Below, piece by piece: positions 53,994 to 61,570 of a DNA stretch of 64,000 nt (the first letter of the stretch is position 1; each line of letters starts with the position of its first letter). Both the position numbers and the translations under genes were made by a program. The notes under the pieces are model-generated. The model searched no databases and had not been told where the DNA came from. It was given only the letters and a program-made list of their open reading frames with translations. The DNA is from an uncultured Actinomycetes bacterium (GTDB lineage Bacteria; Actinomycetota; Thermoleophilia; Solirubrobacterales; Solirubrobacteraceae): positions 10,981 through 74,980 of the forward strand of contig CAWGDO010000003.1 of assembly GCA_963821355.1 (NCBI GenBank). The letters are read 5' to 3'.

Positions 53994-54413
53994 GTGCCGT
54001 CGCTCCTGCAGCGCTTCCGGCGCATCGTCGCACCCCCGGGTCGTCCCGGCGAGGCCGTTGGCGTGCCCGCGTCCGGCACCGAGCTGGAGGGCGAGCTCGA
54101 ACCGGTGCTCGAGCGCCTCGACGACGTCGACGCCGAGGCATCCGAGATCGAGGCGCAGGCCACCGCCGAGGCCGAGCGCAGGCGTGAGGAGGCCGCTCGC
54201 AAGGCAGAGGCGATCCTTGCGGAGGCGCGGGTCGCGGCGGAGGCCGAGCGCGCCCGGGCCGCAGGCGAGCTGCGGACCGCGGCAGAGCACGATGCCGCCG
54301 CCGAACGCGAGGGCGCCGCGCGTGAGGTCGAGCGGATCGAGGCCGTCCGCGAGGAGCGCCTGGCACAGCTGGTCGGCGAGGTGGTCGCATGCGTGCTGCA
54401 CAGCGGGCACTGA
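53994..54413 (+). CDS. A/V-type ATPase peripheral-stalk subunit (G/H-like, coiled-coil)
   Basis: Highly charged Ala/Glu/Arg coiled-coil (AEAERRREEAARKAEAILAEARVAAEAERARAAGEL). First gene of the atp cluster. Start uncertain. Confidence 0.45.
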   Translation: MPSLLQRFRRIVAPPGRPGEAVGVPASGTELEGELEPVLERLDDVDAEASEIEAQATAEAERRREEAARKAEAILAEARVAAEAERARAAGELRTAAEHDAAAEREGAAREVERIEAVREERLAQLVGEVVACVLHSGH

Positions 54414-55336
54414 CCCCGGGGTGGGTCGCGGGGAGCGTTCGCGCCCGCAACATGCTCGCGCGGCGCATCGGGCGCGAGCAGGCACGCCGGCTGGCCGTGG
54501 CGGGCTCGCTCGACGATGCGCTGGCCGAGCTGTCCGCCAGTGCCTACGGGCGCTTCGTGCAGCCCGGGATGGACCTCGCGCGCGCGCAGCGCGGAATCGC
54601 CGAGACCGCCCTCTGGCACGTGCGCGTGCTCGCCGGCTGGTCGCCTCCGGGGGCGATCGAGGCGATCCGAGCGCTCGCGGCCTGGTTCGAGCTTGCCAAC
54701 ATCGAAGACCACCTCGTGTATCTGGCCGGCGGCGAGGCCCCGACGCCATTCGTGCTCGGCGGGCTGGCCACCGCCTGGGAGCGCGTGGCCGAGACTCGCA
54801 CGCCGTCCGAGGCCCGGGCTGCCCTCGCAGGCTCGCCGTGGGGCGACCCGGGAGCGGACGACCTCGCCGGCGTGCTGCTCGGCCTGCGGCTGGCATGGGC
54901 GCGCCGTCTGCTGGACAGCCTCGACGACGTCGGCCCGTGGGTGCAGGGAGCGGTCGCGCTGCTGGTCGCCCGCGAGCTCTTCCTGGCCGGCCGCGCCCCG
55001 GACGAGCTGCTCGCGCGCCGACCGCGGGACATCGGCACCGCGTGGGCCCAGGCAGGGAGCCTGCGTGCCCTGCGCGATGCGCTTCCCGCCGAGGCGGCCT
55101 GGGTGCTCGACGGCGTCGAAGAACCGGCGGACCTGTGGAGCGCTGAGGTCGCGTGGTGGCGCCGCGTTGAGCTCGACGCCGAGGCCCTCGCCCATGCGCC
55201 GCTGATGGGCGAGCAGTGGGTCGTGGGCACCATCGTCCTGCTGGGTGTCGACGCATGGCGCGCCGCGGGCGCGCTGGAGTCCGCCGCGCGCGGCGGCACG
55301 GCCGACGCCCTGGAGGTGTTCGACCGCATTGGCTGA
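54389..55336 (+). CDS. atpC: A/V-type ATPase subunit C (d)
   Basis: ~315-aa helical protein placed where subunit C sits in A/V operons. Weak family-level similarity. Confidence 0.55.
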   Translation: MRAAQRALTPGWVAGSVRARNMLARRIGREQARRLAVAGSLDDALAELSASAYGRFVQPGMDLARAQRGIAETALWHVRVLAGWSPPGAIEAIRALAAWFELANIEDHLVYLAGGEAPTPFVLGGLATAWERVAETRTPSEARAALAGSPWGDPGADDLAGVLLGLRLAWARRLLDSLDDVGPWVQGAVALLVARELFLAGRAPDELLARRPRDIGTAWAQAGSLRALRDALPAEAAWVLDGVEEPADLWSAEVAWWRRVELDAEALAHAPLMGEQWVVGTIVLLGVDAWRAAGALESAARGGTADALEVFDRIG

Positions 55337-55355
55337 CCACCGCTCCCCAACACCG

Positions 55356-56729
55356 ATGAGCCGGGTGGCGCTCGTCGCCCCCGCCACCCATCTGCGCGCG
55401 ATGCTGATCGCCGTCGCCGAGGCGGGGACGGTGCAGCTCGTCGGCCCGCTGCCGGCGCCGCAGGGCGACGCGGTGGAGGCCCTGCGGCGCCTGGAGCGTG
55501 CGCAGCCCCAGGCCGAGAAGCCGCATCCCGCGCTCGCCGAGGCCGGCTTCGACGTCGGGGCGCTCGAGCGCGCGGCCCGCCGCGACCTGCTCGCCGGCGA
55601 GGTCGAGCTGCAGCGGCGCGCCGAGGCGGCGGTCCGGCGCGGGCGCTTCGCGGCGCTGCTGGCGTGGGTCCCGACGCAGGACCTCCCGGCGCTCGGCAGG
55701 CGCCTGGCGCACGTCGGCGCGGCGGCGATCGAGCTGCGGCGCCCCCTGCTCGTGGAGCCGCCGACGCTGCTGCGCCCGCCGCGCCTGGCGCGCCCGTTCC
55801 GGCCGCTGATCGACACCTACGGCGCCTCGCGCTACGCCGACATCGATCCCACGCCGTTCGCCGCCGCAACGTTCGTCTTCATGTTCGGGATGATGTTCGG
55901 CGATGCCGGCGACGGCCTGCTGCTCGCCGCCCTCGGGCTCATGCTGCGCAGGTCACGGTCCGAGCGCCTGGCGCGTCTGCGTCCGCTCTGGCCGTTCCCG
56001 GTAGCGGGCGGCCTGGCCGCCGCCGCGTTCGGCGTGCTCTACGGCGAGTTCTTCGGGCCGACGGGCATTGTCCCCACCCTCTGGCTGGCGCCTCTCGACG
56101 AACCGGTGCGGCTGCTCGCAATCGCCGTGGCGATCGGGGCGCTGCTGCTCGCCGCCAGCTACGGGATCGGCATCGTCAATCGCTGGCGCGAAGGCGGGTC
56201 CCGCGCTGCGCTGCTCGCGCCATCGGGGATCGCAGGGTTCTCGGTCTTCGCGGGCGTCGCCGTGGTCGCGCTTGGCACCTATCTCGCGTCCGGAGCCGTG
56301 TTGGGCGCCGGTGCAGCGATCGTCATCGCCGGCGCGAGCCTGCTGTTCGCCGGCTTCGCCGCCGAGGGCGGCGCATCGGGCGCGGTGGTCCAGGCGTTCA
56401 TCGAGGTCTTCGACGCCGTCATCCGAGTCGGCGCCAACCTCATCTCGTTCACCCGCCTGGCTGCGTTCGGGCTGATGCACGCCGCCCTGGGCTCGGTCGT
56501 CCTCGACGGCGCGCGCGGGCTGTGGAGCGCCGGCGCCGCGGGCCGCGCCGCGGCGATCGCCGTCTTCGCCGTGGGGCACGTGGCCGCGTTCGCGCTGGAG
56601 GCGCTGGTCGCCGGCGTGCAGGCGATGCGTCTTGAGTACTACGAGCTCTTCTCGCGCCTCTTCGCGGGCGAGGGAGAGCCGTTCAGACCCTGGAGGATTC
56701 CCGTGGTTCGAAAGGCGGTGCCGACATGA
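55356..56729 (+). CDS. atpI: A/V-type ATPase subunit I (a; membrane stator)
   Basis: Soluble N-terminal half, then a multi-TM C-terminal half containing a conserved Arg (..[11 protein letters not shown]..). Confidence 0.7.
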
Positions 56730-59583: not shown

Positions 59584-59631
59584 GGGCCCCGGTCGAGCAC
59601 ACGCGCGTGGACTCCGTCCGCGGCCCGCTGC

Positions 59632-60959
59632 ATGGTCGTCGGTGACGTCGCGGGCGTCGGCTGGGACGAGATCGCCGAGATCCGCCTGGCCTCAGGCGAG
59701 CGGCGCCACGGTGTCGTCCTCGACGTCCACGACGACCTGGCGGTGATCCAGGTCGTCGAGGGGACCGACGGCGTCGGGACCGACGGGGCTGCGGGTGGCG
59801 TTCACCGGCGCGCCGCTGCGCGTCCCGGTCGGGGAGGACTGGCTGGGCCGCGTGTGCAACGGCCGCGGCGAGCCGCTCGACGGCGGCCCGCCGATCCTCG
59901 GTGAGCTGCGCGCAGGTCGCCGGCGACCCCATCAACCCGTGGCGGCGCGACGCCCCGAGCGAGCCGGTGCTCACCGGAGTGTCGGCGATCGACGGCCTGG
60001 CCACGCTCGTGCGCGGACAGAAGCTCCCGATCTTCTCGGTCGGCGGCCTGCCGCACCTCGAGCTGGCCGCTCAGATCGCAGCGCAGGCCCGCGCCGGCGA
60101 GGGCGAGCCGTTCGCGGTGGTCTTCGCCGCGATCGGGATCACCCACGCCGACGCGGCGGAGGTCGATGCCATCCTCGCCACGCGCGCCGAGGGCGACCTC
60201 GTCGTGCTGCTCAACACGGCCGACGACCCGCTCGTCGAGCGGCTCGTCACGCCGCAGATCGCCCTCACCGTGGCCGAGCACCTGGCCTTCGAGCGTGGCC
60301 GCCACGTGCTCGTCGTGATGGCCGACCTCACCAGCTACTGCGAGGCGCTGCGCGAGGTCGCCGCCTCGCGCGGCGAGATCCCGTCGCGGCGCGGCTATCC
60401 CGGCCACCTGTACAGCGACCTGGCGGCGCTGCTCGAGCGCGCCGGCAGGATCAAGGAAAAGCGGGGCTCGGTGACACAGCTTCCGGTCCTGACCATGCCC
60501 GCCGGCGATGTCAACCACCCGGTTCCCGACACCGTCGGCTACATCACCGAGGGCCAGCTCGTGCTGGCGCCCGAGCTGCACGCGCAGGGCATCTACCCGC
60601 CCTTCGACCCCCTCGGCTCGCTCTCGCGTTTGATGCGCCTGGGCGCCGGCCCGCGGCGCACGCGCGACGATCACCTCGAGCTGGCAGCGCAGCTCTATTC
60701 CCTGGCGGCCGAGGCGCGCCGCGCCCGCGAGCTCGCCGAGGTGCTCGGCGAAGACGCGCTGTCCGACGCCGAGCGCCGCCGCCTCGCGTTCGCGCAGGCG
60801 CTGAACGCCGACTTCATCGGGCAGGAGCGCGGCGAGCGGCGATCGCTCGAGGAGACCCTGGATCGCGGCTGGAGAGTCGTGTCGCGGCTGCCGCGCGCCG
60901 AGCTGACGATGCTCTCCGACGCCTCGCTCGACGCCCACTACGACGGGGCCGGCCGATGA
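59632..60959 (+). pseudogene. atpB: A/V-type ATPase subunit B, disrupted by two +1 frame shifts (~59787 in a GGGG run and ~59915)
   Basis: Three frames together align with Thermus AtpB: MVVGDV..AVIQVVEGTDGVG | ..TGAPLRVPVGEDWLGRVCNGRGEPLDGGPP.. | ..TGVSAIDGLATLVRGQKLPIFS..FAAIGI..ADLTSYCEALREV..GYPGHLYSDLA..GSVTQLPVLTMPAGDVNHPVPD... Confidence 0.7.
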
Positions 60960-61570
60960 AGGTCCGCCATCCACCCGGCCGCGCGGGCCGCCCGTGGCTC
61001 GTCCACCGCCTCGCGGTCGCGCGCCGCGGCGCTGAGCTGCTCGACGAGAAGTTCCGCGCGCTTGCGCGCGAGCACGCCCGGCTGGAGCCGCAGGCCGCCC
61101 AGGCAGGCGCCGAATGGGAGCACAGCGCGCGCGAGGCCGAGCGCTGGCTGACGCGCGCGGCGGTGATGAGCGGCGAGCGCCAGCTCGCGCTCGCCGCCGC
61201 GGCGATCCCCGCGCCCGCGTCGGTGACCGTCGGCTGGCGCGCGATCCTCGGCGTCAGCTGCCCCGCCGACGCCACGGTCGCTCGCGGCTCCGAGGCCTCG
61301 CTCGCCGGCGGCGCCGCGCTGCTGTGCGCCGCCGAGGCGCATCGGGGCGCGCTGGAGCGCGCGCTCGCCGCAGCGGTGGCCGAGGGCGCGCTGCGGCGGA
61401 TCGAGGCCGAGCTGCGCGCCACGCGGCTGCGCCGCAACGCGATCGTCCACACGTGGATCCCGGCTCACGAGAAGGCGCTCAGGACGCTCGAGCTCGCGCT
61501 CGAGGAGCTCGAGCGCGAGGATGGCGTCGCGCCTGCGGCGGGTCACGCAGCGGGCATAGGCGCGGCGAGC
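60956..61570 (+). CDS. atpD: A/V-type ATPase subunit D (3' end uncertain)
   Basis: ATGA overlap with atpB. MKVRH...LDEKFRAL...TRLRRNAIVHTWIPAHEKALRTLELALEELERE matches the subunit D coiled-coil pattern. No in-frame stop is seen, so the end may hide another frameshift. Confidence 0.5.

Follow-up and report, generated by a model that had tools for sequence, protein, structure and literature searches.

The best-described relatives of the rotary ATPase considered here are the V/A-ATPase of Thermus thermophilus (PDB 3w3a, 3a5c, 7vai and related entries), the A1Ao-ATPase of Pyrococcus horikoshii (subunit A in PDB 3m4y, 1vdz, 3i4l) and the V-type Na+-ATPase of Enterococcus hirae (PDB 3vr2, 7coq). 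These three enzymes gave the best matches when the PDB was searched with the frame-repaired catalytic subunit A of an operon in contig CAWGDO010000003.1 (assembly GCA_963821355.1), from an uncultured member of the Solirubrobacteraceae; F1 beta was found at only ~1e-27. We analyzed a 64,000-nucleotide stretch of this contig, referred to below as the window, and all coordinates are window positions. The operon consists of nine genes, all on the plus strand, and three of them (atpA, atpB and atpD, for subunits A, B and D) are broken by frame disruptions in the sequence as given. These disruptions, six in all, are probably single-base insertion errors of the assembly consensus over a functional V/A-ATPase, because they are found in the window alone, can be repaired, are accompanied by no decay, and belong to an error type that recurs in other genes of the window as well as in sibling assemblies.

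The T. thermophilus enzyme has the same subunit inventory of nine, namely A, B, D, F, C(d), E, G, I(a) and a single-hairpin c. The repaired subunit A aligns with its Thermus counterpart over residues 8-542 (E = 7e-153), and both PF16886 and PF22919 are present in it. Unlike Thermus, the window has the gene order G/H-like, C, I, K, F, E, A, B, D, and its A, B and D genes are frame-disrupted as deposited. Several of the proteins also differ in length from the familiar Thermus subunits: subunit I is ~200 amino acids (aa) shorter, at 457 aa, with a reduced N-terminal domain, subunit K has an extension of ~70 aa, and subunits F (73 aa) and E (166 aa) are short. The top solved relative of the repaired A is the P. 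horikoshii protein (E = 6.5e-163, residues 8-543). The archaeal-type models TIGR01043 and TIGR01041 match the window proteins at 650 and 563 bits, which is below the archaeal equivalog cut-offs (972 and 845 bits) and therefore indicates the bacterial V/A lineage rather than an archaeal orthologue. The E. hirae enzyme has a homologous A3B3DF head (A: E = 1.7e-137) and a like operon logic overall. Its proteolipid, NtpK, is a four-helix, Na+-binding protein. The K subunit of the window, unlike NtpK, has one hairpin with the motif LAEGIAIY, and it lacks both a Ser/Thr after the Glu and the helix-1 Gln that serve as ligands in Na+-binding rings. We take this pattern to be that of an H+-type ring, and on such c-ring motifs the V/A-ATPase is probably proton-coupled.

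The assignment to the V/A class holds for the catalytic subunit A and for the non-catalytic subunit B. Repaired A scored 656 bits with NF003220 (V-type ATP synthase subunit A; cut-off 470) and repaired B scored 587 bits with NF003235 (subunit B; cut-off 349), as compared to just 76-198 bits with models for F1 alpha/beta and for the FliI and type III secretion system ATPases (76-166 for subunit A). Pfam domains in A are PF02874, PF16886 (the A-specific insert), PF00006 and PF22919 (the V/A C-terminal domain), with the last two also found in B, and the repaired A retains an intact P-loop (GGFGTGKT) and GERGNE motif. Subunit D matched PF01813 well above the cut-off of 25.7 bits, with TIGR00309 below threshold (51 versus 72). 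The membrane sector expected of a bacterial V/A-type ATPase (I, and K with its conserved Glu) is present, as is the D and F central stalk; uninterrupted frames for all subunits are absent from the sequence as given. The system belongs to the bacterial V/A-ATPase family and already carries that annotation in relatives.

Six frame breaks occur in the sequence as given, two in atpA, three in atpB and one in atpD, and each is a +1 shift that results from a single additional base (Table 1). With proteins of an intact orthologous operon (L001) as tblastn queries, atpA was recovered in three pieces (57857-58168, 58113-59369 and 59374-59580, in frames 2, 3 and 1) and atpB in four (59580-59618, 59629-59787, 59762-59902 and 59901-60956, in frames 3, 1, 2 and 3). 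For atpD, tblastn covered residues 1-176 in one frame, and the frame is lost ~30 nucleotides (nt) before the natural stop. The initial annotation of this locus was correct that atpD has no visible stop, and the reason is now clear from the sixth, single-base insertion at ~61527, near the 3' end of the gene. It had also recognized two breaks in atpA, but at ~58148 and ~59379 instead of ~58170 and ~59373; in atpB it had counted two (~59787 and ~59915, here ~59785 and ~59911) and missed a third at ~59630. Of the two explanations that it offered, an inactivated relic or assembly indels, the indels are clearly favored by the evidence below. That evidence includes the comparison with the nearest orthologous operons that it had proposed, in which the six extra bases were absent from the aligned orthologues.

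Local multiple alignments with five to eight relatives place each extra base in otherwise conserved sequence and in the window only; none of the 5-9 orthologues compared at a given site has it. The first was unique among six aligned sequences (and is also missing from L082, a contig outside that alignment) and the second among nine aligned loci. The nearest orthologue, L002, comes from an assembly that is short-read by the look of its contig name, and is 85.5% identical to the window in nucleotide sequence over 7.6 kb. Within genes, that comparison shows no uncompensated indels other than the six 1-nt window insertions, all in A, B and D. Raw blastn indel counts are uninformative for the noisier relatives, where compensated gaps dominate at 73-88% identity, and tblastn frame steps and local multiple alignments were used in their place. 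Only one of the six extra bases has a homopolymer context (GGGG at 59785). The others include a G between T and C (59630) and a T between G and C (61527), the latter of which is not a product of slippage.

Deletion of the six bases yields A, B and D proteins of 576, 458 and 199 aa and restores the GTGA junction between A and B and the ATGA junction between B and D. The repaired atpD has its stop codon at 61557-61559, and the protein ends in ...EREDGARLRRVTQRA. At least one of the disruptions is part of the deposited assembly and did not arise when the window was extracted, since a database protein (P0001) corresponds exactly to window positions 58257-59432, including the out-of-frame tail that follows the second extra base.

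The repaired A, B and D genes show no decay and no relaxation of selection. The ratios of non-synonymous to synonymous substitution rates (dN/dS) between the window and L002 or L003 were 0.13 and 0.14 for A, 0.10 and 0.10 for B, and 0.28 and 0.38 for D, which are indistinguishable from the values between the intact L002 and L003 operons (0.11, 0.11 and 0.30). Three-taxon branch lengths, derived by hand from pairwise dN, revealed no non-synonymous excess on the window branch. Furthermore, alignments of 63-78 orthologues contain 275 invariant or near-invariant columns; the window showed no singleton deviation at any of them (up to four in other sequences) and no change at 220 strictly invariant codons. 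In simulations of neutral substitution, the probability of zero hits at these 220 codons was 0.08 with 3 substitutions per indel, 0.02 with 5 and 0.0002 with 10; bacteria typically accumulate about ten substitutions per indel. Six real indels would thus need to have accumulated almost without accompanying substitutions.

Defects of the same kind are found in genes that have nothing to do with the ATPase. A scan of the window, using segmentation by G+C content at third codon positions (GC3) and a stop-codon check followed by homology, detected a +1 defect in three unrelated plus-strand genes, encoding an MMPL transporter and two secreted proteins (Table 1). Homologues of the first secreted protein are 467 aa long and read ...ALSDAVAGTDDVQLVAG uninterrupted, and the extra T at 19283 is missing from L083, an independent contig whose product (P0123) has 98% protein identity. 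Homologues of the second are 200-220 aa long, and the window fragment matches them only from their residue 80 on. The frequency outside the operon is about one +1 frameshift per 19 kb, which by extrapolation is far above expectation for true pseudogenes in a free-living bacterium. At the MMPL locus, frame f0 stays open past the break, to 9564, and an SPFH/band-7 gene (from ~31095) upstream of the second secreted-protein gene runs into it in the same frame with no stop. Two further candidates were rejected: one GC3 candidate at a PAP2/GDPD junction (~43920), where the indels relative to L003 sum to a multiple of three, and one on the minus strand at ~22147, judged to be noise at a gene start.

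The sibling assemblies point in the same direction. Among 82 related loci (81 distinct) retrieved for comparison, fragmented A, B or D genes were found only in five contigs with Flye-type names from Nanopore data (L004, L010, L028, L029 and L082); the breaks are at positions other than those in the window, and 9 of the 11 frame steps are +1. All three genes are single-frame in 76 of the 81 distinct loci, and the 31 loci contributed by other projects, whose contig names mostly point to short-read assembly, are all unfragmented. The fragmented contigs belong to the Microflora Danica long-read catalogue, which was generated from Nanopore reads only, with Flye assembly and one round of Medaka (PMC12313526). 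Non-homopolymer 1-nt insertions are abundant in L082 and L083, and the source pattern of a window protein fragment (NCBI plus ENA) matches that of the Nanopore relatives. Most likely the window derives from a Nanopore/Flye metagenome assembly that was left unpolished or had low coverage, and it may come from that catalogue as well. Overall, the disruptions are isolated 1-nt indels in restorable reading frames, and the same kind of defect is present both in unrelated genes and in sibling assemblies whose technology is known.

As for these noisy contigs themselves, nearly all genes of L082 (ERZ25039551 contig_33865), a close relative of the locus and an example of an error-laden contig in public data, are broken, including those for LonC, C, I, E, A and B; its A fragment has 94% protein identity to that of the window, and alignment of the two produced 97 gap openings over 8.6 kb. 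L083 (ERZ25039490 contig_74754) aligns with window positions 18985-26519 and contains many single-base insertions. Its identity to the window is 100% at 25.2-26.5 kb, 97-98% at 19.3-20.5 kb and 70-80% in between, a mosaic that is consistent with either a chimeric consensus of related populations or recombination.

Several observations weigh against consensus errors as the source of the operon's disruptions. The six insertions are tightly clustered, with 6 in 3.7 kb versus ~3 in the remaining ~56 kb, and both the upstream operon genes (3.9 kb) and the flanking genes with orthologues (~12 kb; patatin, HSP20, nitroreductase, LonC, CBS, DUF2267, a second CBS and ArsA) are free of them. A uniform error rate does not explain this clustering. 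Remnants of hycI and of a gene for an FAD-dependent oxidoreductase sit between atpD and the CBS gene, reflecting two deletions relative to L003 and L004, at a position where relatives have 1.2-6.5 kb of genes that include hycI and Ni-hydrogenase cytochrome b. Elsewhere in the window, the remaining half of an EmrB/QacA-like MFS transporter gene, which begins directly after the stop of a DUF47 gene and has up to three deletion-type frame changes (one confirmed by Pfam), looks like a genuine truncated pseudogene. Finally, no second assembly covering the operon in the same population turned up in the protein database, where the best non-self matches have 92-94% protein identity, and a scan of species-representative genomes gave no match above 94%. 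One way to reconcile the clustering with consensus errors is suggested by the conservation of the operon. The A and B genes are its most conserved part, with 85-94% nucleotide identity to related populations versus 72-89% upstream, and reads of co-occurring relatives could have been mixed into the consensus at A and B, which would enrich errors locally.

The same local features can be read to mean that the frameshifts are real, and that an accessory V/A-ATPase was very recently inactivated, leaving atpA, atpB and atpD as young pseudogenes in an eroding locus. This reading, which we consider unlikely, would account for the clustering of the disruptions in one functional unit (6 in 3.7 kb versus 0 in ~16 kb of neighboring genes with orthologues) and for the hycI and oxidoreductase remnants immediately downstream; furthermore, the MFS remnant argues that real pseudogenes exist in this genome, and P0001 places at least one of the frameshifts in the deposited record. 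If correct, it would offer a modestly interesting snapshot of an accessory rotary ATPase in the process of being lost. However, selection on the three genes is not relaxed and their invariant residues are all kept, so that fewer than ~3 neutral substitutions per indel would be needed. The mutations are also of an odd spectrum for spontaneous events, with all six being 1-nt insertions and five of them outside homopolymers, where a mixed spectrum would be expected. A dead operon should gather indels in all nine genes, and even fall of six would place all of them in the 3' half with a probability of only ~0.014. Identical +1 defects in unrelated genes, for one of which a near-identical contig lacks the extra base, likewise do not fit with inactivation of the ATPase. 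A different way to have real insertions is for the cell to make full-length A, B and D by +1 ribosomal frameshifting, recoding or RNA-level correction at the six sites. Programmed frameshifts at that density would be without precedent in the core bioenergetic genes of bacteria. All six shifts do have the same sign, and the GC3 coding signal continues in the shifted frame. The six sites nevertheless share no motif and no slippery or stop-codon context, no aligned orthologue is shifted at any of them (the single-frame loci are those counted above), and the unrelated genes have the same defect at unrelated sequences. Moreover, we know of no bacterial gene that requires three programmed +1 shifts. 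Programmed frameshifting was therefore rejected for want of a shared motif and of any conservation of the shift, and it strikes us as extremely improbable.

With consensus errors as the preferred explanation, this Solirubrobacterales-like soil bacterium most likely encodes an intact nine-subunit V/A-ATPase. Its A3B3 catalytic head would be joined to a D-F rotor shaft, C (d) would link that shaft to the K ring, made of single-hairpin subunits, and the E and G/H-like peripheral stalks would hold the I (a) stator.

Table 1. Genes, extra bases and gene remnants discussed in the text (window positions; the extra base is in brackets and the corresponding gap in orthologues is shown by a hyphen)
Feature	Position	Strand	Remarks
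G/H-like peripheral-stalk subunit	53994-54413	+	139 aa, Ala/Glu/Arg-rich coiled coil
Subunit C (d/AC39-like)	54389-55336	+	315 aa, intact
Subunit I (a)	55356-56729	+	457 aa, intact; PF01496, 84 bits
Subunit K (c-ring proteolipid)	56726-57145	+	139 aa; PF00137, 58 bits over residues 76-135
Subunit F	57142-57363	+	73 aa, intact
Subunit E	57360-57860	+	166 aa, intact
Catalytic subunit A	57851-59583	+	in three frames; 576 aa repaired
Subunit B	59580-60959	+	in four frames; 458 aa repaired
Central-stalk subunit D	60956-61559	+	199 aa repaired; PF01813, 101 bits
Extra base 1, atpA	58168-58172 (~58170)	+	GCC[G]CGAC; orthologues GCC-CGAC or GCC-CCAC
Extra base 2, atpA	59371-59375 (~59373)	+	TCCGCG[C]GCGCC; orthologues GCG-GCGCC
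Extra base 3, atpB	59629-59632 (~59630)	+	CCGCTG[C]ATGG; orthologues CCGCTC-ATGG or CCGCTG-GTGG
Extra base 4, atpB	59784-59788 (~59785)	+	GAC[G]GGGC; orthologues GAC-GGCC
Extra base 5, atpB	59910-59914 (~59911)	+	GCGCG[C]AGG; orthologues GCGCG-AGG
Extra base 6, atpD	61525-61529 (~61527)	+	GGCG[T]CGCGCC; orthologues GGCG-CGCGCC
MMPL transporter	4501-7762	+	shift at ~7165, f0 to f1; Pfam MMPL domains on both sides
Secreted protein	19175-20582	+	extra T at 19283; signal peptide in f1, body in f2
Secreted hypothetical protein	31953-32592	+	~213 aa; shift at ~32190, f2 to f0
hycI 3' remnant and FAD-dependent oxidoreductase 5' remnant	61579-62031	-	~70 aa and ~65 aa
EmrB/QacA-like MFS transporter	27322-28290	-	C-terminal half only; 5'-truncated

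The layout of the operon, in a window with a G+C content of 71-77%, was agreed upon by a codon-position GC plot, Pfam and tblastn with the L001 proteins, and it is the sole match in the 64-kb window to V/A subunit A and B queries. The six upstream genes, from the G/H-like gene to E, each align with the orthologue at full length in one frame. Start and stop codons overlap as ATGA at I/K, F/E and B/D and as GTGA at K/F and A/B, and E and A overlap by 10 nt. The G/H-like gene, which had no match in Pfam and NCBIfam searches, overlaps C by 25 nt; a full-length orthologue with the same overlap is present at the same place in L001, and orthologues were found in 35 of the 82 loci. The position of the C, E and G/H-like genes is conserved across orthologous operons, even though family-profile scores are below threshold for C (PF01992, 19 bits; cut-off 29) and E (PF01991, 22.7 bits; cut-off 24.2) and absent for the G/H-like protein. 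Subunit C aligns in a single frame over the full length of its L001 orthologue with 70% identity and was found in 73 of the 82 loci, and the E protein likewise aligns in one frame with a full-length orthologue. Subunit F is also sub-threshold (PF01990, 20.6 bits; cut-off 23.5), but its place in the operon and its size fit the assignment, as do a full-length orthologue and occurrence in 72 of the 82 loci.

The two membrane subunits have unusual proportions relative to the family models. Subunit I aligns in one frame (tblastn) to an orthologue of 458 aa, and its N-terminal soluble domain is far shorter than in the family models (~610-700 positions); the NCBIfam subunit I models match only from about profile position 264-300 onward. 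Subunit K matches NF004888 (V-type subunit K) with E = 5e-15 and consists of an N-terminal extension of ~70 aa followed by the single hairpin, in which the Glu of the ...LAEGIAIY... motif is the conserved carboxylate. The lengths of I and K in L001 (458 and 139 aa; L001 positions 7497-9289) are essentially those in the window, so the short I and extended K are features of the clade rather than defects of the window. Indeed, the short subunit I, the N-terminally extended K and the short F are all clade-wide and not specific to the window.

The nearest homologues of the operon are in metagenome-assembled genomes of the Solirubrobacteraceae, Thermoleophilaceae and Gaiellaceae. In these operons (e.g. 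L002 and L003-L005), the A core has 84-94% protein identity to that of the window and the gene order and overlaps are shared; unlike the window, which alone has the six extra bases, most have an intact A of 574-576 aa, with B of ~458 aa and D of ~200 aa. More broadly, species-representative genomes contain 464 related stretches, mainly in the Solirubrobacterales, Gaiellales and Acidimicrobiales, and of the 82 loci retrieved, 61-75 contain the C-I-K-F-E core. The system is therefore a common accessory one in this clade and no oddity. In these respects, the nine-gene order and the tight start/stop coupling proposed in the initial annotation were borne out (with the added detail of the 10-nt E/A overlap and of GTGA also at A/B), and its V-ATPase call stands against an F-type or flagellar origin on the model scores given above; its view that such an operon is unusual for these genomes does not hold. 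One genome paper reported F-type enzymes in the Thermoleophilia type strains examined (PMC6741124), and our search for literature on V-type ATPases in Thermoleophilia found nothing specific.

Directly upstream of the operon (45869-53967) are genes for HSP20, an Acg-like nitroreductase, LonC, a CBS protein and DUF2267, a synteny that is found only in the closest relatives (5-10 of the 82 loci). Farther upstream, at 32974-39375, are tandem USP genes and a group-3-like NiFe hydrogenase cluster, the latter with HycI, large and small subunits, NAD-binding and Fe-S subunits and a cNMP-binding regulator. This neighborhood is compatible with a role in stress or hypoxia. An alternative reading of the locus, which is independent of the frameshifts, would place an accessory V/A-ATPase within a hypoxia/dormancy island composed of these genes (HSP20, LonC, Acg-like nitroreductase, CBS, DUF2267, USP and NiFe hydrogenase), where it might act as an ATP-driven proton pump that holds the membrane potential in resting cells.

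If the disruptions are artefacts, as seems probable, they are a reason for caution, in that the genome has uncorrected +1 insertions at about one per 20 kb plus local clusters. Unless the reads are checked or the annotation takes frameshifts into account, calls of gene loss, pseudogenes or "split genes" from this genome would then be untrustworthy. The operon itself is nothing new, given that V/A-type ATPases are annotated in hundreds of Thermoleophilia and Acidimicrobiia genomes. The conserved short subunit I, along with the adjacency to stress genes in the closest relatives, may merit a separate look.

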